A stretch of DNA of 64,000 bases from Escherichia coli O127:H6 str. E2348/69 (GTDB lineage: Bacteria; Pseudomonadota; Gammaproteobacteria; Enterobacterales; Enterobacteriaceae). Both the position numbers and the translations under genes were made by a program. The stretch lies in assembly GCF_000026545.1 (NCBI RefSeq), contig NC_011601.1; one strand, written 5' to 3'. Shown here piece by piece: positions 1,642 through 17,881 of this stretch; the stretch's first letter is position 1, and every line of letters begins with the position of its first letter. Under the pieces are notes generated by a model. That model was not told the origin of the DNA. It saw only the letters and a program-made list of their open reading frames with translations, and searched no databases.

Positions 1642-2507
1642 AAACCATTCAGGACAAAGCCAAGCATCGTACCCGTCCACTATGGGCCTGGCTAAAACTA
1701 CTCTGGCAACGCATTGATGAGGACAACATGACAACCCTGGCAGGTAACCTTGCCTATGTGTCGTTGCTCTCATTAGTGCCGCTGGTTGCCGTTGTTTTTG
1801 CGCTTTTCGCCGCTTTTCCCATGTTTTCCGACGTCAGCATTCAGTTGCGTCACTTTATTTTTGCCAACTTTCTGCCTGCTACTGGCGATGTTATCCAGCG
1901 ATATATCGAACAGTTTGTCGCCAATTCCAACAAAATGACCGCCGTCGGGGCGTGCGGGCTGATCGTCACGGCGTTATTGTTGATGTACTCCATCGATAGC
2001 GCGTTGAATACCATCTGGCGCAGTAAACGAGCGCGACCCAAAATTTACTCGTTTGCCGTGTACTGGATGATTTTAACGCTGGGGCCGCTGTTGGCAGGGG
2101 CCAGTCTGGCGATCAGCTCCTATCTGCTCTCTCTGCGCTGGGCGAGCGATCTCAATACTGTCATCGATAATGTGTTGCGTATTTTTCCGCTGCTGTTGTC
2201 GTGGATCTCTTTCTGGCTGCTGTACAGCATCGTTCCTACCATCCGTGTACCTAACCGCGACGCGATTGTCGGCGCGTTTGTCGCCGCGCTCCTGTTCGAA
2301 GCAGGAAAGAAAGGTTTCGCGCTTTATATCACCATGTTCCCATCATATCAGCTCATTTACGGTGTGCTGGCGGTGATCCCCATTCTCTTTGTTTGGGTCT
2401 ACTGGACATGGTGTATCGTCTTGCTTGGCGCGGAAATTACTGTCACTCTCGGGGAATACCGCAAATTAAAACAAGCTGCTGAACAAGAAGAAGACGACGA
2501 ACCATGA
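1635..2507 (+). CDS. yihY: Inner-membrane protein YihY (formerly rbn), BrkB-like
   Basis: The ORF is 290 aa and multi-pass hydrophobic. It matches recalled K-12 YihY, overlaps the yihX stop, and is syntenic. Confidence 0.92.
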
Positions 2508-2941
2508 TTGCATTAATTCAACGCGTAACCCGTGCCAGCGTCACCGTGGAGGGAGAAGTGACGGGTGAAATTGGCGCGGGACTTTTGGTGTTATTGGGTG
2601 TCGAAAAGGATGACGACGAACAGAAAGCAAACCGTCTGTGCGAGCGTGTGCTCGGCTACCGCATCTTTAGCGATGCCGAAGGCAAGATGAATCTCAACGT
2701 GCAACAGGCGGGCGGCAGTGTACTGGTGGTTTCCCAGTTTACCCTTGCCGCAGATACCGAACGGGGGATGCGCCCAAGTTTCTCCAAAGGCGCATCACCG
2801 GATCGCGCAGAGGCGTTATATGACTATTTCGTCGAACGCTGCCGTCAGCAAGAGATGAACACGCAAACAGGACGCTTCGCTGCGGATATGCAGGTATCGC
2901 TGGTCAATGATGGCCCCGTGACATTCTGGTTGCAGGTATGA
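2504..2941 (+). CDS. dtd: D-aminoacyl-tRNA deacylase
   Basis: The 145-aa protein begins [17 protein letters not shown] and matches K-12 Dtd. Its start overlaps the yihY stop in an ATGA junction. Confidence 0.96.
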
Positions 2942-3927
2942 GCCAGCTTCCAGGGTTGTCACGGGAAACAAGAGAGAGTATCGCTATGTATCACCTTCGG
3001 GTTCCACAAACAGAAGAAGAATTAGAGCGTTACTATCAGTTTCGCTGGGAAATGTTGCGTAAGCCCCTGCATCAACCAAAAGGTTCGGAACGCGACGCGT
3101 GGGATGCGATGGCGCATCACCAGATGGTCGTCGACGAGCAGGGTAATCTGGTAGCGGTAGGCCGACTGTATATTAATGCCGACAATGAAGCGTCCATTCG
3201 CTTTATGGCCGTTCATCCCGACGTGCAGGACAAAGGGTTAGGCACGCTGATGGCGATGACCCTGGAGTCGGTGGCACGTCAGGAAGGCGTTAAGCGCGTG
3301 ACCTGTAGCGCCCGTGAAGACGCGGTGGAGTTTTTCGCCAAGCTGGGGTTTGTTAATCAGGGAGAAATCACCACGCCAACCACCACGCCGATTCGCCATT
3401 TTTTGATGATTAAACCCGTCGCCACTCTGGATGATATTCTTCATCGCGGCGACTGGTGCGCCCAGCTCCAGCAAGCGTGGTATGAACATATCCCGTTAAG
3501 CGAAAAAATGGGTGTGCGCATTCAGCAATATACCGGGCAAAAATTTATCACCACCATGCCGGAAACCGGCAATCAGAATCCGCATCACACGCTGTTTGCC
3601 GGGAGTTTATTCTCGCTGGCTACGCTCACCGGTTGGGGGCTTATCTGGCTGATGCTGCGCGAACGCCACCTCGGCGGAACGATTATTCTGGCGGATGCGC
3701 ATATCCGCTATAGCAAACCGATTAGCGGTAAACCCCATGCGGTAGCCGACCTTGGTGCCTTAAGTGGCGATCTCGACCGTCTGGCGCGCGGACGAAAAGC
3801 GCGGGTACAAATGCAGGTCGAAATCTTTGGCGACGAGACGCCGGGTGCAGTGTTTGAAGGCACGTATATCGTTCTGCCCGCGAAGCCATTTGGCCCGTAT
3901 GAAGAGGGCGGGAACGAAGAAGAGTAG
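2938..3927 (+). CDS. yiiD: GNAT acetyltransferase / thioesterase-fold protein YiiD (FabY)
   Basis: The ORF is 329 aa with an N-terminal GNAT region ([15 protein letters not shown]). Length and sequence match recalled K-12 YiiD, and the gene is syntenic. Confidence 0.92.
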
Positions 3928-3944
3928 GGGCGTTTTACTTGACT

Positions 3945-3973
3945 GAAAAGGTTTTCAATCTGAAAACCTTTTC
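3945..3973. terminator. Bidirectional Rho-independent terminator between convergent yiiD and the esterase gene
   Basis: A perfect 12-bp stem pairs GAAAAGGTTTTC (3945-3956) with GAAAACCTTTTC (3962-3973) around a 5-nt loop. Confidence 0.7.
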
Positions 3974-3990
3974 TGGGCCCTGGTCCGGAG

Positions 3991-4941
3991 TTACCTTCCC
4001 GCTCTCCAGGCAACATCCCGTAGCGCCGATCGCGCAGCCTCACTGATACCACCTAACTGAAAAAATCCGTGGATAACGCCAAGGTAGCGTTGGCAGGTGC
4101 ATTGCACTCCTTGCCCTGTCATGCGGTGATACAACGCTTCACCTTCATCGCAAAGTGGGTCGTATTCAGCGGTAATGATATGTACAGGTGGCAATCCATT
4201 GAAATCATTGCGCCAAATAGGGCTGGCTTCAGGATGCCTGCGTTCAATGCCTGGCAGGTACATCTCAAAGCCGCTCAGTAAAGTGTCGCGTGTGATGATG
4301 TAATCGTGACCATTGCGTATGTAGCTTTCGAAATGCGCAGTCGCATCAAGCATAGGATAAATTAAGATGAGTTGTGCTGGTTGCCACTCGCCAGCACGCT
4401 TCAATCGCAAAGCAGTTACCTGCGCCAGATGCCCTCCCGCACTGTCACCGGCAAGAGTTATTCGTTGTTTATCAACGCCGAGTCGTTCGGCGTGTTGCCG
4501 GACTAATTCTGCACCTCGTTGTGCATCATCATGGGCGGCGGGGAAAGTATGTTCCGGTGCCAGCCGATACTGGACGGCAATAATCCGACATTGCCCGTAA
4601 TAGGCTAACTGGCGCAGCTGGTTGTCGTGAGTTGCGAACCCGCCGCTAACAAAACAGCCACCGTAGTAATAAATTATCGTCGGGAGTAATGTCGGGGCAT
4701 TCAGCGGTGACACTATTCGTAAGGTCATCCCTTCAAGTTCGATAGTCTGAATATCTACCCGCGTTTCTGTCTCACCCGCAAGGACAGCGCTGGCGATATA
4801 GCCCTCTCTGCGCTGCGTAATACTTTGTTGGCGCGATGAGGGGCGACCCGCAGCGATAAACTCTTCGACTAACTCTGCAATTCCTTTTTCCAGTGCCATA
4901 GTAGAACTCATTTTGCTGTATGAATGTACAGTTTTATACAC
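3991..4941 (-). CDS. Alpha/beta hydrolase, hormone-sensitive-lipase (Abhydrolase_3) family esterase/lipase
   Basis: The ORF is 316 aa. It has an oxyanion-hole-like IYYYGGCF (an HGGG variant), the nucleophile elbow GDSAGG, and the distal acid/His elements DPLCDEG and VIHGF. It is not in the K-12 yiiD-yiiE interval. The start could instead be M11 or M15. Confidence 0.8.
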   Translation of the reverse strand: MYKTVHSYSKMSSTMALEKGIAELVEEFIAAGRPSSRQQSITQRREGYIASAVLAGETETRVDIQTIELEGMTLRIVSPLNAPTLLPTIIYYYGGCFVSGGFATHDNQLRQLAYYGQCRIIAVQYRLAPEHTFPAAHDDAQRGAELVRQHAERLGVDKQRITLAGDSAGGHLAQVTALRLKRAGEWQPAQLILIYPMLDATAHFESYIRNGHDYIITRDTLLSGFEMYLPGIERRHPEASPIWRNDFNGLPPVHIITAEYDPLCDEGEALYHRMTGQGVQCTCQRYLGVIHGFFQLGGISEAARSALRDVAWRAGR

Positions 4942-4986
4942 CCGTTTTTACTGGATGGATACAGGGAAATTCACGGGCGTGAAAAA

Positions 4987-5006
4987 TCTGGAAAGCGCCT
5001 CGCAAA
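4987..5006 (+). promoter_or_regulatory. Conserved box, copy 1 (TCTGGAAAGCGCCTCGCAAA); sigma54-like GG-N10-GC spacing
   Basis: This is one of three near-identical boxes (4987, 6220, 6668), all in the same orientation. It lies about 120 bp upstream of higB-like. Confidence 0.4.
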
Positions 5007-5073
5007 TGTAAAGACAAACCCGGCAGAGACGTGGTTTTGCTGGAGCACTATCAGTAAGCTAGTGGTTTCAAGG

Positions 5074-5090
5074 GTACGTCAATGACGTAC
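5074..5090. promoter_or_regulatory. Perfect palindrome GTACGTCA-A-TGACGTAC, candidate HigA-type operator
   Basis: It has 8-bp perfect arms around one central nucleotide and lies 38 bp upstream of the toxin ATG. Type II TA operons are typically autoregulated at such palindromes. Confidence 0.45.
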
Positions 5091-5127
5091 AAAAAGGATT
5101 GTTACTCTAAGCCAATGGCGTATAATT

Positions 5128-9249: not shown

Positions 9250-12200
9250 TTACACCTTTTCCACATTCACAAGGAAGGACTTAAACTCCGGCGTCTGCGT
9301 GTTCGCATCACCGACGAATGGCGTCAACGTATTGGCAATAAAGCCTTTTTTCGCAACACCTTCATAGCCCCAGTGAATCGGAATACCGATGGTATCGATA
9401 TCTTTGCCGTTTGCTTTCAGCGTGCGAATACGTTTGGTCACTACCGCTTTGGCTTTGATATAGCCACGGTTGGAGGAGACTTTCACAGTATCGCCCTGGG
9501 CAATGCCAAGTTTATTCGCCAGCGACTCCCCGATTTCCACAAACTGCTCTGGTTGCAAAATCGCATTCAACAGCGCGTGTTTGGTCCAGTAGTGGAAGTG
9601 CTCGGTCAGACGATAGGTGGTTCCGACATACGGGAACTTATCGGCTTTACCCAATGCTTCGGCGTCGTCTTTAAAGATACGCGCAGCCGGGTTCGAGATA
9701 ACGTTTGGATGCAGCGGGTTAGTTCCCAGCGGCGTTTCAAACGGCTCGTAGTGTTCCGGGAACGGACCTTCCGCCATCTTATCGAGGGCAAACAGACGTC
9801 CCATGCCTTCCTGCTGCATGATAAACGGCCCTACGCCGCTGCCCGGAGGCGCTGCGCTGTAGTCCGGAATATCCCAGCCGGTCCACTTAGTGCCGTCCCA
9901 TTTCAGCAACTGACGCTTCGGATCCCATGGGTTACCCTGCGGATCTGCGGAGGCGCGGTTATACAGAATGCGGCGGTTTAGCGGCCATGCCCATGCCCAG
10001 CCCAGCGTGTTACCGAGGCCAGACGGATCGGCGTTATCACGACGCGCCATCTGGTTGCCTTCCGGCGTCCAGCTACCGGCGAAAATCCAGCAGCCACAGG
10101 AGGTTGTACCGTCATCGCGCAGTTGGGCGAACGAGCTAAGTTGTTGGCCTTTCTTGACGATAACCGCACCGGTTGCCGGGTCGGTAATATCGGCCAGCGC
10201 TTTGCCGTTGCTCTCCATTGCCACTTCTTCTGAAGATGGCTCATGCGGAATGGCGTAGTTCCAGGTCATGTTCAGCACCTGGTCCGGGTTCGCGCCACCC
10301 TGTTCGGCATACATCTTGCGCAAGCGCAGGAAGATACCGGAGAGGATCTCGCCATCAGTCAGCGCAATCCCCGGGGCGTCCGCACCTTTCCAGTGCCACT
10401 GTAACCAGCGACCTGAGTTAACGATAGAACCGTTCTCTTCCGCGAAGCAGGTCGATGGTAGACGGAACACTTCGGTCTGGATCTTCGACGAGTCAACTTC
10501 GTTCAGCTCACCGTGGTTCTGCCAGAAGTTAGAGGTTTCAGTGTTCAGCGGGTCGATAGTCACGAGGAATTTCAGCTTCGACAGACAGCCGATCACTTTG
10601 TTTTTGTTCGGGAATGAGGCAACAGGGTTAAAGCCCTGGCAGATATAGCCATTGACCTTGCCTTCTTTCATCATCTCGAAGTATTGCAGGACGTCGTAGC
10701 CTTTATCCCACTTCGGCAACCAGTCAAAGCCCCAGCTATTTTCCGCCGTCGCTTTATCACCAAAGAAGGCCTTCATCATAGAGACGAAGAATTTCGGGTA
10801 GTTGCCCCAGTAGTTTACCTGGCCTTCCAGCAGCGGTTTTGGCGTGTTGGCGGTAAGGTAGGTTTGCAGATCGGTCTGCTTCTCGCTTGGCAGCGTCATG
10901 TAACCTGGCAGGCTCTGCGACAGCAGCCCCAGGTCGGTCAGCCCCTGAATATTGGAGTGACCGCGCAGGGCGTTAACGCCGCCGCCAGCCATCCCCATAT
11001 TGCCGAGCAGCAACTGGATCATCGCCATCGTACGGATGTTCTGCGCACCGATGGAGTGTTGCGTCCAGCCGAGCGCGTAAAGGAACGAGGCAGTTTTATC
11101 GTGAGCACTGGTTTCGGCGATGTATTCGCAGACTTTCAGGAATGCGTCTTTTGGCGTACCACAGATGTTTTCAACCACATCTGGCGTGTAGCGGGAAACG
11201 TGCTGTTTCAGCAAGTTCCACACGCAACGTGGATGTTGCAGGGTAGTATCGCGTTTGGCGAAGCCGTTTTCGTCCAGTTCGTAAGTCCAGGTGGACTTAT
11301 CGTACTTGCGTTTTTCCGCGTCGTAGCCGGTGAACAGGCCATCTTCAAAGCCGTAATCCTCACGCACGATCAGGCTAGCGTTGGTATAGGCTTCGGTGTA
11401 TTCGCGGTTGAATTTTTCATTGTTCAGCAGGTACAGCAATACGCCTGACAGGAAAGCAATGTCAGTACCGGAACGGATAGGGGCATAGTAGTCAGCCACC
11501 GCCGCTGTACGTGTAAAGCGAGGATCGATCACAATCAGCTTCGCGCCGTTGTGAATTTTGGCTTCCATCGCCCAGCGGAACCCGACCGGGTGAGCTTCAG
11601 CGGCGTTACCGCCCATCACCACGACGAGGTTGGCATTCTTGATGTCGACCCAGTGGTTGGTCATCGCACCGCGACCAAATGTTGGAGCAAGACTTGCTAC
11701 CGTTGGTCCGTGTCAGACACGCGCCTGGTTGTCGACCGCGAGCATACCCAGCGCGCGGGAGAATTTTTGCGTTAAATAGCCGGTTTCGTTACTCGACGCG
11801 GAAGCACACAGCATCCCGGTGGAGAGCCAGCGGTTAACAGTCACGCCTTCGGCGTTTTGCGCAATGTAGTTCGCATCGCGGTCTTCTTTCATCAGTTTGG
11901 CGATGCGATCAAACGCCTCTTCCCAACTGATTTGCTGCCATTTATCAGAACCTGGCGCACGGTATTCCGGAAACTTCAGGCGGCTTTCGGAGTGGATGAA
12001 ATCCACCAGGCCAGCGCCTTTCGGACAAAGTGCTCCGCGGTTGACCGGGTGATCCGGGTCACCTTCGATATGGAAGATAGATGCTTTGGCGTTTTTTGCT
12101 CCGTCACCGAGGCTGTACATCAACAGCCCACAGCCTACGGAACAATAGGTGCAGGTATTACGGGTTTCGCGGGTGCGCAGCAGTTTATACTGCCGGGTTT

Positions 12201-12300
12201 CCGCGAGTGCTACGCTGGGTGCAAAACCCAGTGCCGCTGCCGTGGTGCCTGCCATACCGCCAGCGCAGATCTTAAAGAACTGCCTTCTGCTGACCTGCAT
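9250..12300 (-). CDS. fdoG: Formate dehydrogenase-O catalytic alpha subunit (selenoprotein; in-frame TGA = Sec196)
   Basis: Track ORFs 11713-12300 and 9250-11664 are in the same frame. Translation reads ...DNQARV-TGA-HGPTVASLAPTFGRGAMTNHW. A twin-arginine signal (SRRQFFK) is present. The total of 1016 codons matches K-12 FdoG. Confidence 0.95.
11672..11715 (-). other. Selenocysteine codon (TGA at 11713-11715) plus SECIS hairpin
   Basis: The minus-strand RNA is UGA CAC GGACCAACGGUAGCAAGUCUUGCUCCAACAUUUGGUC. GACCAA pairs with UUGGUC and AGCAA with UUGCU around a GUC apical loop. The hairpin lies immediately 3' of the UGA, as in the E. coli fdhF/fdnG SECIS. Confidence 0.8.
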
Positions 12301-13330: not shown

Positions 13331-13336
13331 AGAAAT

Positions 13337-13372
13337 ACCGCAATTCTGATTCTGGATTGCGGTTTTATTTTT
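13337..13372 (+). terminator. Rho-independent terminator of fdhD
   Basis: The stem pairs ACCGCAAT (13337-13344) with ATTGCGGT (13356-13363). TTTTATTTTT follows. Confidence 0.7.
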
Positions 13373-13640
13373 CTATTAAATAATCCTCAATATATTATTC
13401 AGCATTTAAATAATAATTTCACCACAATAAATTATCTCGTTAATTCCGGTTTATATCGATATACTCCGGTCGCATTAATCCTTTAAGAATTAATCATTAT
13501 TTATATAAGACATTTTGTTTTAATCATCGCGTCAATAAATAAATGTTTCTGATGAGTGAATGCAAATAACAAACCTTGCACCGGTTGTAAAAACAGCAAT
13601 GTATTTTCAATAGTGGGTGATGGATTATGAGTATTGAAAA

Positions 13641-15476
13641 ATGAGTACATTACAGTTACCTGGCAGTTCATATTCTACTGAAGTTAATTTAAACGGCTTA
13701 ATTGAGGTGCTCAGTAAGCACCTTTACTCTACCCCCGTGGTCGCCGTGCGCGAGCTGGTGCAGAACGGACACGATGCGATCGTGCGCCGCAGGATTGAGC
13801 AGCCCGATGCGCCAAAGGATAACCAAATTCGTGTGGTGGCAGACGTGGCGAAGTCCACCATCACCATTACCGATACCGGTGCGGGTTTGACAGAAAGCGA
13901 AATTCACGGCTTCCTGGCAACAGTGGGCGTGGGTTATACCCGAATGTTGCGCCAGCAGGATGACAACACCGGTTTAATTGGTATGTTCGGCCTTGGTTTC
14001 TTGTCAGCATTTGTACTTGCAAAAGAGGTCACGGTGTTGACCACATCCTGGCAAACGCCGGATCAGAGCTGGAAATACCACTCTACCGACGGGCAAAAAT
14101 ATACCGTTACGCCGCATCAGTCCTCGGAAACGGGAACGCAGGTGATTCTGACGCTCAAAGAAGAGTACAGCCATCTGGCGAGTAACAATTTGCTGAACCG
14201 CGTTCTTTCCCGCTACTGTGTATTGCTGCACGAACCGGTCTATGTCGGCGATGCCAGCGAGCCGGTAAATAAACTTCAACCACCGTGGCGTGAAGTTGCC
14301 CCCGAAGGCGTAACCATACACCGCGCGCTGGTACAGCGTAAAAATCTCGCCTTTGCCGCCCAGTTTGAATCCTCCTTCGAACCGATTTGCACCATTCCGG
14401 TGGTGCCAGCGGGAATGAGCGACGCGGTTGGGATTTTATGGATTCAGGATGGCGCGACCTACGGCACCAGCGATAACCGCAACCTGTCGTTGTTTTTGCG
14501 CGGCATGTTACTGGATGATGAAGCGCGTGAGTTGTTACCGCCCTGGGCCGGATTTATTGGCGGCGTGATTGAGTCATCGAAACTGACGCCGACGGCGAGC
14601 AGGGAAGATCTCCAGCGGGATGCAACCTGGGTTGCGGTACAGGAGGCGTTAAAAGAGGCGCTGATTTCTGGTTTGTCCGATCTCGCACAAAATCAGCCAG
14701 AAATCTGGCGGCGGGTATTAATGCGCCACAACGAAGCGTTGCTGGGTGCGGCCTTGTGTGATGACCGTCTGTTTGATTTGCTCAAAGATCGCTTGCAGGT
14801 GCCAACGTCAAAAGGGGCGCTGCTGGCGAAGGATTTACGCGTTAATAACAGCATTCATATTCTGTTAAGCCGCGACGGCGGTTTTGAAGAGATGTTGTTC
14901 CATATTCTGCAACGGCCTGTAGCCCGTGGCGATCGCTATGCGGTGGTGCCATTTTTACGCCGTTGGGCGCTGTTATATCACTGCCGGATTGTCGAAGTCG
15001 GTACGCAAACGGGTAATGAGCAGTTGTTCAGCCTGGCAGAATTACCCAAAGAGCAGGTGGCTTATCTGGAAGAGCATCTCTGCGACGGCGAGCAATTAAT
15101 TATCTCACGCTTCGAACCCGCCGTTTTACCGTTAGTGGTTACACCAGACCGCGAAGCAGAATTAAAACAAATTCTCGAACAGGATGACGCAGATAAACGC
15201 ATCAGTACCGCAGCGTTAATGCTGGCGCGGCAATTTACCTCGCAAATCCAAAAATCTAAAACTTCAAGTCTGTATATCAACCTTAATAACCCCTGTGTCA
15301 TGCAACTGGTGACGGCCTTACAACACCATCAACAGCCAGCGGCAGCATTACGGTTATTAAAATCGCTGAAAGTGATTTTGTGCTCCAGCGGTAATAAAGA
15401 ACAGCAGTGGGATTTACACCAGGCACTGGAAGATTTTACTCAGGTTATTCCTGTCTTAATTAATCAAGGAAAATAA
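13641..15476 (+). CDS. Hsp90/HtpG-family paralog (GHKL ATPase), full length
   Basis: The 611-aa protein aligns by eye to E. coli HtpG along its whole length. Matches are STE14 (catalytic Glu), RELVQNGHDA (N-box, against RELISNASDA), DTGAGLT (G1, against DNGVGMT), GMFGLGFLSAF (G2, against GQFGVGFYSAF) and LTPTASREDLQ (middle-domain catalytic Arg loop, against LPLNVSREILQ). It is too divergent to be htpG itself, which maps elsewhere. Confidence 0.85.
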   Translation: MSTLQLPGSSYSTEVNLNGLIEVLSKHLYSTPVVAVRELVQNGHDAIVRRRIEQPDAPKDNQIRVVADVAKSTITITDTGAGLTESEIHGFLATVGVGYTRMLRQQDDNTGLIGMFGLGFLSAFVLAKEVTVLTTSWQTPDQSWKYHSTDGQKYTVTPHQSSETGTQVILTLKEEYSHLASNNLLNRVLSRYCVLLHEPVYVGDASEPVNKLQPPWREVAPEGVTIHRALVQRKNLAFAAQFESSFEPICTIPVVPAGMSDAVGILWIQDGATYGTSDNRNLSLFLRGMLLDDEARELLPPWAGFIGGVIESSKLTPTASREDLQRDATWVAVQEALKEALISGLSDLAQNQPEIWRRVLMRHNEALLGAALCDDRLFDLLKDRLQVPTSKGALLAKDLRVNNSIHILLSRDGGFEEMLFHILQRPVARGDRYAVVPFLRRWALLYHCRIVEVGTQTGNEQLFSLAELPKEQVAYLEEHLCDGEQLIISRFEPAVLPLVVTPDREAELKQILEQDDADKRISTAALMLARQFTSQIQKSKTSSLYINLNNPCVMQLVTALQHHQQPAAALRLLKSLKVILCSSGNKEQQWDLHQALEDFTQVIPVLINQGK

Positions 15477-15477
15477 A

Positions 15478-17784
15478 ATGGATACATGGGAGTGGTACAA
15501 CAAATATAGTCAAGAGTTGCGTGATGCCGGGCAAGAATATATTCCGCAGCTTATTGATGATTTTTCAGAAAGTGTTTTGCACCTACAAATAGAAAAATGT
15601 GATTCGCTATTGCCGGAAATGAAAGCACTGAATCAAGTCGCCAAAAATCCGTGGCTGGAAATATTTATTGGTCACTGGGAAATGCGTCATCGCCTGACTA
15701 ACTATGAAGAAGGTGAAAAGGTGCTGCCAGACGTGGTAGCGCTGTTTGAAAAAGCGCATCGGGAAGAGGCGAAAGATTGCCCGCAATCTATCTGCGTTAC
15801 CCAGGATTTATCAGCCTGCTACGAAAATATTGACGCACCAGGCTGGGCGAATGAACGCATGGCGGTGTGTGAAGAAACCATCGCGCGCATTGATCCGACC
15901 TGGAGCTGTTTTCAGTGTTTGTCCACTGAATATGCCAGCGCACTGATAGATTCCAAAAGAACAGAGGAGGCACTGGCTTATCTGGATCGGCAAATCGACG
16001 CAGTTAAAGCAGCCGGGAAAGATGATATTGATCCATTACTTTATACTCGCGCCGATATTCTGATTGAACTTCAGCGTTATGATGAAGCACGCAAATTGAT
16101 TGATGAGCTGACAGAAGCCAATGATTACTGGGGCCGCGACCGCATTAGTAATCACCTAAAAAAACTGTACATCATGGCGTTATGCGGGCAGGACGAAGAA
16201 GTCTGGGAGGAATTACCGCGTTGGTCCGATCTGACTCCGCATTCATGGGGGTCATGGCTGAAAATCATTACTGTGTTACTTCCCCGTCATCCACAAAGAA
16301 ACAACTGGCAACTGGCGCGCATCATCCAGAAAATGCTGGAGCAACGTTCACAGGCCGGGGCGCATCGAAAAGTGGTTAATCTGGCAAAACTACAAATCAC
16401 CCTGGCGCTGGAGCGTGAATCCGTCTGGGTTGCCAAAATAGCGATGAAACTGGCCCAGCGACACATGCCAAAATTACGCGCGTTACTGGGCGTCGATCGC
16501 GAGTTTCTCGAACTTAGCGAAAAAATCGCCACCAAAGAAGCAGAGTTGCTTGCTCGTCCGGTTGTAGAAGTACCTGAAAATAGCGACGAAGAAACGCAGC
16601 CAGATCCAGAAAAAGACGTCGAAATATTCCGCCGCGCTTATCTGAACACACCAGACGATGCAGAGTTACTGGGCAAACTGGTCAATGCGTTAAATGCCTG
16701 TAATGCGATTAATGAGTCAATTGAACTTCTGCAACGCTATGTTGAAAGCCACCTCCATGAAGATAATGGTCTTTGCTTCGATCTGTTGGATTTATTGCTC
16801 CACCGTGACGATCTGCAAACCATTGAGCACCTGGCGAAGCAGTATGAACAGGCGGGGCTGCTACATATGGCCTTGTGGTTCCGGGCGCGAGTGATCAACC
16901 AACAGGAAGACTGGAGTGAACTGGAGTCGATTGGACAACAGTTGCTGCAAAACGAAAAAGGGCGTGAGTGGGTTGGCGTTTATCGCATGTGCTCCTGGGC
17001 AGCACAAAAACAGGAAGCCTGGGATCGACAGCTGGATTATTTACAACAATTGCAGCAACTGATGATTAGCCGTGAAGAAGATATTCGTAATCTCCAGTGG
17101 GATATCATGGCGACCGCCAGCATCCTGCAACAATGGGATTTGGTTCGTGCTATTGCTGCTGAACTGGAAATCGAACTCACGGAAGGTGAAGGTTTTATTG
17201 ACGAAAAATGGGGGCTGCTAAACATTCGCTTCCGGGAAAATTATGAATACCGCTATTACTATGCTCAACGTATTGGGCCGGTAACCGCAAGGATCATTGA
17301 GCCAACTTACCGGACCGATTATCCGCAACATGTTGATGAGGTTGTGGTATTCGATGCAGAAATGTTGAATACCCGACCAGAGGATGAGGAAGAGCAGAAG
17401 AATTTCACTCCGCTTTATGGGTGCCTGAAAACCATTATCCCGACCGAATACGGCGAGTCCTGGTTCTGCGAAGGTGTCATGCCTGGTGAAGAAGAGTTTA
17501 ATACTTTCCGTGAGGCGCTCCGTGAACGAAACTGGTACTACTGGAGCAACAGTAATGACGACTATACGTTAACGGACAGTCATCAAGGAGAAGGCGCTGA
17601 GCCGCTGTCTGCATTCTATTTTGTTATCAGTGCGCCGCGTTCAGTTTCTAAAGGTGATATCGACAAGACCTTGCACGAATTGACCGCTGACTGGAAACAT
17701 CCGTTGTGCTGGTGGCGTCTTGCCAAAGAAGCCGGGGCGAATGAAGAGAAACATGCTGCTATTGCCGAGAGATATGGAATGTAA
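15478..17784 (+). CDS. Large helical-repeat (TPR-like) protein with Cys cluster and C-terminal domain of unknown function; partner of the Hsp90 paralog
   Basis: The 768-aa ORF starts 1 nt after the upstream stop (TAA A ATG), implying translational coupling. About 560 aa are Leu/Ala/Glu-rich helical hairpin-like segments (for example EEALAYLDRQIDAVKAAG and YDEARKLIDELTEAND). Cysteines at 101/106/114/131/144/147 include a CxxC. An acidic linker spans 361-380 and an aromatic-rich C-terminal segment spans about 575-768. I recognised no catalytic motif. Confidence 0.7.
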   Translation: MDTWEWYNKYSQELRDAGQEYIPQLIDDFSESVLHLQIEKCDSLLPEMKALNQVAKNPWLEIFIGHWEMRHRLTNYEEGEKVLPDVVALFEKAHREEAKDCPQSICVTQDLSACYENIDAPGWANERMAVCEETIARIDPTWSCFQCLSTEYASALIDSKRTEEALAYLDRQIDAVKAAGKDDIDPLLYTRADILIELQRYDEARKLIDELTEANDYWGRDRISNHLKKLYIMALCGQDEEVWEELPRWSDLTPHSWGSWLKIITVLLPRHPQRNNWQLARIIQKMLEQRSQAGAHRKVVNLAKLQITLALERESVWVAKIAMKLAQRHMPKLRALLGVDREFLELSEKIATKEAELLARPVVEVPENSDEETQPDPEKDVEIFRRAYLNTPDDAELLGKLVNALNACNAINESIELLQRYVESHLHEDNGLCFDLLDLLLHRDDLQTIEHLAKQYEQAGLLHMALWFRARVINQQEDWSELESIGQQLLQNEKGREWVGVYRMCSWAAQKQEAWDRQLDYLQQLQQLMISREEDIRNLQWDIMATASILQQWDLVRAIAAELEIELTEGEGFIDEKWGLLNIRFRENYEYRYYYAQRIGPVTARIIEPTYRTDYPQHVDEVVVFDAEMLNTRPEDEEEQKNFTPLYGCLKTIIPTEYGESWFCEGVMPGEEEFNTFREALRERNWYYWSNSNDDYTLTDSHQGEGAEPLSAFYFVISAPRSVSKGDIDKTLHELTADWKHPLCWWRLAKEAGANEEKHAAIAERYGM

Positions 17785-17881
17785 GCGGCACTAACGTTTG
17801 TCCGACTCTGGTGTAGCTGAACGGTGAAATCCCAGGTCGGACAACAAACCGTACTAACGGGGGGCCCAAAAATTGTGTCTC

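Follow-up and report, generated by a model that had tools for sequence, protein, structure and literature searches.

Hsp90 chaperones are marked by ATP hydrolysis and by a constitutive dimer that closes at its N-termini. The bacterial member of the family, HtpG, has clients that are poorly known; it is not known to have a co-chaperone, and bacterial Hsp90 is generally described as working without dedicated co-chaperones. Here we describe a different Hsp90-like protein, encoded in a 64,000-nucleotide stretch of the Escherichia coli O127:H6 strain E2348/69 genome (contig NC_011601.1; hereafter the window) by an open reading frame (ORF) of 611 amino acids (aa) at positions 13641–15476 on the + strand, from ATG to TAA. 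It is followed by the gene of a large tetratricopeptide repeat (TPR) protein of 768 aa, here called the partner (15478–17784, + strand), the start codon of which begins one base past the stop of the Hsp90-like gene. We put at roughly 60% the probability that the 611-aa protein is a functional, ATP-hydrolysing Hsp90-type clamp and one half of a dedicated two-protein chaperone machine.

E. coli HtpG has the same three-domain fold as the 611-aa protein, together with the same catalytic glutamate, Mg-binding asparagine, adenine-binding aspartate, glycine boxes and middle-domain arginine, and neither protein has an EEVD tail. The genetic setting differs: the 611-aa protein always comes with a dedicated partner gene, and while htpG belongs to the E. 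coli core genome, the gene of the 611-aa protein is an accessory one. TRAP1 is similar in that our structural model superposes on its closed state and in that R321 aligns with R417 of zebrafish TRAP1, but TRAP1 is eukaryotic and organellar, is 18–20% identical in structural alignments and has no TPR partner encoded alongside. Eukaryotic Hsp90 works with the TPR co-chaperones Hop/Sti1, PP5, FKBP51/52 and CHIP; in comparison with these the partner described here is far larger, carries a module with four conserved cysteines (Cys4), and ends in a domain to which searches of Pfam and of solved structures gave no match by sequence, the same searches having detected no sequence homology of the partner to any eukaryotic co-chaperone.

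Chen et al. (2006; PMC1525184) recognised three groups of bacterial HtpG, A, B and C, with E. coli HtpG in Group A; four length-variable regions were used, shorter variable regions were described for Group C, and further "HSP90-like" proteins were noted. The 611-aa protein stands clearly apart from Group A and has a shorter lid than HtpG, in a comparison with the E. coli protein.

Family placement and fold

The ORF was found exactly as originally predicted in position, strand and length, the latter being near that of HtpG (611 vs 624 aa). Its product is 100% identical to RefSeq WP_000105780.1 (E. coli E2348/69), which is named "ATP-binding protein" and no more. Other public labels for proteins of the clade are inconsistent: "molecular chaperone HtpG", "hypothetical protein" and, in some genome annotations, "Hsp90xo".

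The best-scoring curated model for the protein is NCBIfam NF010683 (PRK14083, "HSP90 family protein"), which matches aa 13–571 with E = 1.7e-85. Pfam HATPase_c_3 matches aa 32–174 above its cut-off, and Pfam HSP90 matches aa 274–353 with 32.9 bits against a cut-off of 24.4. The residues listed in the original prediction align to Hsp90 catalytic positions, with two corrections (see below). Among solved structures, phmmer finds TRAP1 and HtpG with E = 1e-27 to 2e-30, the best match being TRAP1 (E = 2e-30, aa 10–359). Identity to E. coli HtpG is about 25% over aa 13–406, and past aa 406 hhalign gives no sequence alignment.

The fold of the whole chain was assessed from an AlphaFold2 model built from 51 homologues (predicted local distance difference test, pLDDT, 82; predicted template-modelling score, pTM, 0.74, for the monomer). 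The top Foldseek matches of this model are full-length chains of HtpG, Hsp90, TRAP1 and Grp94 (E = 1e-32 to 1e-28), with alignments of about 650–680 columns and template-modelling (TM) scores of 0.61–0.68 to closed-state structures. Because these matches are full length, N-terminal, middle and C-terminal domains are all Hsp90-like in the model, as had been thought plausible from the length of the protein. The N-terminal GHKL (Bergerat-fold) ATP-binding domain occupies about aa 1–210 (13641–14270) and the middle domain about aa 211–480 (14271–15080), both boundaries being approximate; the C-terminal domain, about aa 481–611 (15081–15476), has the Hsp90 C-terminal fold in the model and is presumed to be the dimerisation module. 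All coordinates given for the two genes and their features are on the + strand.

A HMMER search of 1.84 billion cluster representatives returned about 55 full-length clusters at 36–52% identity, after which identity falls to about 30%. Three other members of the clade scored 241–283 bits on PRK14083 and are, like the 611-aa protein, under both NCBI Hsp90 cut-offs (discussed below), and the relatives at about 30% identity likewise fall under that of PRK14083. As no curated model covers the clade, the RefSeq name stays "ATP-binding protein". The 611-aa protein belongs to a separate, patchily distributed Hsp90 clade present in several phyla; it is not a recent htpG duplicate and should not be named HtpG. 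The term "paralog" used in the original prediction holds in the sense of an ancient split, not for a member of the same clade, and the description "highly divergent elsewhere" is right with respect to HtpG (about 25%); within the clade itself conservation is even and strong across all three domains.

Beyond the clade, the neighbours of one relative (P0198) are different and unrelated. On a metagenome contig (L089), the gene of an Hsp90-like protein of 31% identity (2040–3890) is flanked by two unannotated genes (353–1984 and 3877–5127; 543 and 416 aa), the second of which overlaps the stop codon of the Hsp90-like gene; both flanking products resemble the partner family only marginally. Dedicated partners may thus exist for other non-canonical Hsp90-like proteins as well.

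Catalytic residues

The motifs named in the original prediction are all present in the translation: YSTE (aa 11–14), RELVQNGHDA (37–46), DTGAGLT (78–84), GMFGLGFLSAF (114–124), TASREDLQ (318–325) and the C-terminus VLINQGK. We mapped them onto Hsp90 in three ways: by phmmer to TRAP1, by aligning a profile of the 51 family sequences with E. coli HtpG in hhalign (probability 99.85%; aa 13–406 against HtpG 9–434), and by MAFFT with HtpG added to the family. The family set comprises 51 sequences at 43–54% identity, plus two near-identical Escherichia copies. All three alignments concur.

The catalytic glutamate is E38, found in R-E38-L-V-Q-N42 where HtpG has R-E-L-I-S-N, and equivalent to HtpG E34; N42 is the Mg-binding asparagine (HtpG N38), and D45 corresponds to HtpG D41 (E38, N42 and D45: nt 13752–13775, N-terminal domain). 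The residues of this N-box had been proposed correctly, but E38 was given merely as its first residue, and the catalytic role was assigned to E14 of the YSTE string instead. That assignment does not hold: in each alignment E14 pairs with the Q of the Hsp90 "FQxE" motif (Q10 in HtpG), and the column varies in the family, where it is mostly Q or R. The two glycine boxes of the N-terminal domain align as predicted to the HtpG D80 and G121 boxes and are invariant: in D78-x-G80-x-G82 (nt 13872–13886), D78 is the adenine-binding aspartate (HtpG D80) and G80 and G82 correspond to HtpG G82 and G84, and in G114-x-x-G117-x-G119 (nt 13980–13997) the glycines correspond to HtpG G121, G124 and G126. Further along, G165-T166 corresponds to HtpG G173-T174. 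The middle-domain catalytic loop, T318-A-S-R321-E-D-L-Q325, also aligns to HtpG as predicted, except that the arginine had been numbered 322, which is a glutamate; the catalytic arginine is R321 (nt 14601–14603), equivalent to HtpG R336 and zebrafish TRAP1 R417, and Q325 corresponds to HtpG Q340.

Conservation of these positions is close to complete. E38, N42, D45, D78, G80, G82, G114, G117, G119, G165 and R321 are invariant in 51/51 sequences, as are T318, A319, S320 and E322 of the catalytic loop; Q325 is kept in 50/51 and T166 in 39/51. The protein therefore has the Bergerat-fold motifs of the Hsp90 superfamily (ExxxN, DxGxG and GxxGxG) and, in R321, the catalytic-loop arginine known as R380 in yeast and R336 in HtpG. 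In the MAFFT alignment the ATP lid has about five residues fewer than that of HtpG, with a signature, L-A-T-V-G-x-G-Y-T-R, that is invariant in the clade and specific to it, and the lid region has low pLDDT in the model, as expected of a mobile lid. From these residues and from the fold we infer that the protein hydrolyses ATP and dimerises.

Linkage to the partner gene

In a scan of 80 loci, one genome per species, a partner homologue lies directly downstream in 79, and the single exception ends at a contig boundary; the protein matches run end-to-end in the 80 loci. These are spread over Gamma-, Beta- and Deltaproteobacteria, Acidobacteria, Chloroflexi and Fibrobacterota, and include Xanthomonas, Stenotrophomonas, Lysobacter and other Lysobacterales, Pseudomonas (the pair being carried by some P. 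aeruginosa), several Enterobacterales, Variovorax, Rhodocyclaceae, Holophaga and Desulfovibrio. Three more distant members, from Archangium, Parabeggiatoa and one metagenome-assembled genome, also have a gene of 760–780 aa directly downstream. The pairwise distances of the Hsp90-like and partner proteins are correlated with r = 0.91 (325 pairs), the partner evolving about 1.5 times faster. A specialised role, as originally proposed, fits this strict linkage to one partner gene.

No third conserved gene was found at the loci of the pair. When 106 genes flanking the pair at 29 loci (about 28 genera) were scanned with Pfam, no family recurred, ABC_tran occurring five times and the rest at most twice, and the neighbours are varied housekeeping genes. 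A link to molybdoenzyme or Fe-S genes, which lie nearby in E. coli, Archangium and Parabeggiatoa, was considered and rejected, as Fer4 occurs only twice among the 106 neighbours. Xanthomonas (16 species) and Stenotrophomonas (more than 25 genomes) each keep the pair at a conserved locus of their own, near radA. This is vertical inheritance, and the pair is apparently core in both genera.

Two neighbourhoods have features of their own. In Variovorax sp. H27-G14 (L080:3005-5110) the gene nearest upstream of the pair is a canonical htpG (Pfam HSP90, E = 1.4e-129), the only one of the 29 loci with both types of Hsp90 as neighbours. In Phytobacter ursingii (L079:11516-13807) a 764-aa GTPase P-loop protein resembling a bacterial dynamin-like protein is encoded about 1.4 kb downstream of the pair and is not conserved elsewhere.

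The partner protein

The partner (WP_000382016.1) is named "tetratricopeptide repeat protein" by RefSeq. Its AlphaFold model has a pLDDT of 92.6 and a pTM of 0.80, and can be divided into an N-terminal module (aa 1–160; 15478–15957), a TPR-type alpha-superhelix (15958–17163) and a C-terminal alpha/beta domain (17164–17781) that runs from about aa 563–579 to 768; the helical solenoid as a whole spans aa 1–562 and so includes the N-terminal module. This module is the most conserved part of the protein, with 44 of its 160 columns conserved to at least 90%, compared with 9–16 per 200 elsewhere. It holds two invariant cysteine motifs, C101-P-Q-S-x-C106 (nt 15778–15795) and C144-x-x-C147 (nt 15907–15918), the cysteine columns of which are unchanged in both a 26-sequence and a 48-sequence alignment. 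Judging by their pattern, the four cysteines are a candidate metal (Zn) or redox site, and may bind a metal.

The conservation of aa 1–160 also makes this module the likely surface of contact with the Hsp90-like protein. A more distant family member (36% identity) is instructive in this respect: its downstream gene encodes only 352 aa, homologous to partner aa 1–352 and to no other part (hhalign probability 99.9%, E = 1e-32), both cysteine motifs included. The N-terminal half is on this evidence the core partner module, with the remainder an addition. As for the Hsp90-like side, an EEVD- or EVD-type C-terminal tail is present in none of the 51 family members, whose tails are not conserved, in agreement with the lack of a MEEVD-like tail reported originally. 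Docking in the eukaryotic style, through a TPR carboxylate clamp, is thereby excluded.

Docking elements are typically conserved termini or acidic loops, and the C-terminal domain of the partner has both. In the stretch P-E-D-E-E-E (17377–17394) the P, E and D are invariant, and the C-terminal end, (I/V)-E-R-Y-G-L (17764–17781), is conserved in most of 48 homologues. Pfam gave no match to this domain, either cropped or in 15 homologues, and a profile search of solved structures gave none either, MlaC being best with E of about 0.7. The best structural matches of the solenoid include the ligand-sensing TPR proteins MalT (domain III), AimR, Rap and NprR. With these and PlcR, identity to the partner is 9–12% and the likeness is that of the general repeat fold; DNA-binding, phosphatase and STAND ATPase domains are all missing from the partner.

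Selection and distribution in E. coli

Both genes are under strong purifying selection. The ratio of nonsynonymous to synonymous substitution rates (dN/dS), calculated with other Escherichia species and Superficieibacter, is 0.05 for the Hsp90-like gene and 0.07–0.08 for the partner in the comparison within Escherichia, and 0.02–0.03 against Superficieibacter; the four copies translated for this purpose contain no stop codons. Within E. coli, 254 of 5426 complete genomes (4.7%) carry the pair, in all cases on the chromosome. The DNA matches cover at least 80% of the query length in 254/254 and 100% in the 40 matches listed, and in four sampled carriers both genes are annotated as intact with no pseudogene flag. 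The pseudogenisation in related strains that would have argued for decay was thus not seen.

Most carriers have the gene order fdhD-pair-yiiG-frvR, and K-12 has fdhD-yiiG-frvR, with the left junction of the segment in the last codons of fdhD. Comparison of the two orders defines the pair as a 4.5-kb presence/absence segment, and the carriers that have both the pair and yiiG rule out the reading that the pair replaces yiiG. E2348/69 itself has no yiiG and no remnant of it in the window (13331–17881 compared), and four other carriers retain the gene; yiiG has been additionally lost in E2348/69. A mobile element was also considered and rejected, since the annotation of the locus shows neither transposase nor integrase, the segment boundary is clean, and the pair is absent from plasmids and phages.

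The pair adjoins fdhD in both Escherichia and Superficieibacter, and in one genome of Salmonella Infantis it lies downstream of fdhD at a distance of a few genes. This proximity to fdhD in other genera points to an old chromosomal polymorphism in the Enterobacteriaceae. The E2348/69 allele is rare: at the DNA level three genomes among the 254 carriers are at least 99% identical to it, and 238 are at 90–95%. The FdhD protein is identical in E2348/69 and two sampled carriers, and the pair diverges far more deeply, a pattern suggestive of old alleles or of acquisition from elsewhere in Escherichia.

Sequence features around the pair

Upstream of the pair is an AT-rich intergenic region of about 270 bp (13374–13640; G+C content 36–37% vs about 50% in the flanks), preceded directly on its 5′ side by a terminator-like hairpin of fdhD (13337–13373). 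The region is conserved among Escherichia species and not in Superficieibacter. The promoter of the pair is presumably located here; no convincing match to a sigma-70 site was found upstream of the pair on the + strand. Downstream of the partner gene, an inverted-repeat terminator read by eye was discarded, as the repeat search gave none at its thresholds.

At the end of the intergenic region is a mini-ORF of five codons (13627–13644, + strand; ATG AGT ATT GAA AAA TGA, "MSIEK"), preceded by a good Shine-Dalgarno-like sequence, GGTGATGG. The mini-ORF stops at a TGA that shares bases with the start codon of the Hsp90-like gene (ATGA), an arrangement suggestive of coupling by termination and reinitiation. 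In Superficieibacter electus, which differs from Escherichia by a one-base gap at this position, the ATG of the mini-ORF is in frame with that of the Hsp90-like gene and would add five residues to the protein.

Elsewhere in the window, the formate dehydrogenase-O alpha gene (− strand) appears in the ORF list as two frames, 11713–12300 and 9250–11664, split at an in-frame TGA (11713–11715), where RefSeq has a single 3051-nt coding sequence. The TGA, which lies within A-R-V-TGA-H-G-P-T, stands where a selenocysteine codon is expected and does not mark a pseudogene.

Proposed mechanism and alternatives

We propose that the Hsp90-like protein would not be a general stress chaperone like HtpG, and that it would instead form, with the co-transcribed 768-aa partner, a self-contained two-protein machine. 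The Cys4 N-terminal module of the partner would most likely dock on the Hsp90-like dimer, and a specific client, one dedicated to the pair, would most likely be held or acted upon by the TPR superhelix and the C-terminal alpha/beta domain; alternatively, the superhelix and the C-terminal domain might themselves be remodelled by the ATP-driven closing of the clamp. An extended form of the proposal, in which this branch of bacterial Hsp90, widespread in Proteobacteria and other phyla, depends on a TPR co-chaperone for its work, docks it in a manner other than through MEEVD, and has its cycle coupled by the Cys4 site to metal or oxidative status, is more speculative and, in our view, less likely than not.

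Several points weigh against the two-protein chaperone machine. The 611-aa protein scores 287.7 bits on PRK14083, below the curated cut-off of 455, and 198.4 bits on the HtpG model NF003555 (PRK05218), below the cut-off of 371 and over aa 14–385 only. V97 stands where HtpG has the lid lysine K99, and together with the shorter lid this means that the ATPase kinetics may differ from those of HtpG. The evidence for contact between the two proteins is the linkage of their genes; the C-terminal domain of the partner is unclassified and may have an enzymatic or effector role; and 95% of complete E. coli genomes lack the pair, so it is dispensable there. No biochemical or genetic data for any member of the clade were found in the literature searched, nor was a published study of the pair or the clade, many papers in subscription journals not being covered.

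The alternative that survives best, though we regard it as improbable, is a regulatory switch, in which the Hsp90-like dimer would use ATP only to set the conformation or activity of the partner, itself the sole "client", and the Cys4 site would sense redox state or metal. In its favour, each Hsp90-like gene is linked to one partner gene and to nothing else that is conserved, the Cys4 motif does not vary, clade-specific motifs are conserved along the whole Hsp90-like protein, and so are the ERYGL end and the acidic PEDEEE stretch of the partner. Against it, the present data do not separate the switch from the adaptor model, and the partner lacks a recognisable output domain (DNA-binding, kinase or cyclase).

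Slightly less probable still is an anti-phage or conflict system, with the TPR superhelix sensing a phage protein or peptide, the ATPase as switch and the C-terminal domain of the partner as effector. The compact two-gene operon, its patchy occurrence in E. coli (254/5426) as a 4.5-kb presence/absence segment by fdhD, and the resemblance of the solenoid to MalT domain III, AimR, Rap and NprR speak for such a system, and the N-terminal ATPase region has weak PADLOC matches to TmtA and a type II restriction enzyme. In PADLOC-DB 2.0, however, the best of these (TmtA, E = 5e-6) reflects the generic ATPase fold only and the partner has none; the Pfam and solved-structure searches found no nuclease, TIR, protease or other effector signature, and no defence family recurs among the neighbours in the 29 loci; neither a significant PADLOC-DB match nor a defence-island context was found. 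The pair occurs in 3 of 72,556 plasmid records and in one phage record, which is a Salmonella genome contig, all of them mis-filed chromosomal sequence. It is also syntenic and apparently core in Xanthomonas and Stenotrophomonas, which argues against a defence system, its dN/dS of 0.05–0.08 gives no sign of diversifying selection, and the DefensePredictor paper does not mention it.

That the protein is simply a redundant second HtpG, with the neighbouring TPR gene unrelated in function, seems to us quite unlikely. The fold and catalytic residues are indeed the same, and some sources label the protein "molecular chaperone HtpG", but identity is about 25%, the C-terminal third cannot be aligned by sequence, and the score falls under the cut-off of the HtpG model. 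The clade moreover has invariant motifs of its own that are missing from HtpG, the partner is always present and co-inherited, and all carriers also retain canonical htpG. Finally, a decaying duplicate or pseudogene, which the original prediction had already thought less likely and for which no support was found, is refuted by dN/dS of 0.02–0.05, invariant catalytic residues, four copies without stops, end-to-end matches in 80 loci and intact annotations in the sampled E. coli carriers. Conservation, fold and selection support the original view of the protein as an active, specialised Hsp90.

Implications

A clade of Hsp90 that is always encoded with a large TPR protein offers a simple two-gene system for studying how a clamp is coupled to an adaptor or client, and it is available in tractable carriers: enteropathogenic E. 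coli E2348/69, Xanthomonas, Stenotrophomonas maltophilia and some Pseudomonas aeruginosa. Both Xanthomonas, which are plant pathogens, and the opportunists in Stenotrophomonas appear to have the pair as part of their core genome, but the literature searched gave no function for it. A family definition spanning both genes would correct the present inconsistent annotation. If the extended form of the proposal is borne out, an obligate TPR co-chaperone would overturn the textbook view of bacterial Hsp90 as acting alone.

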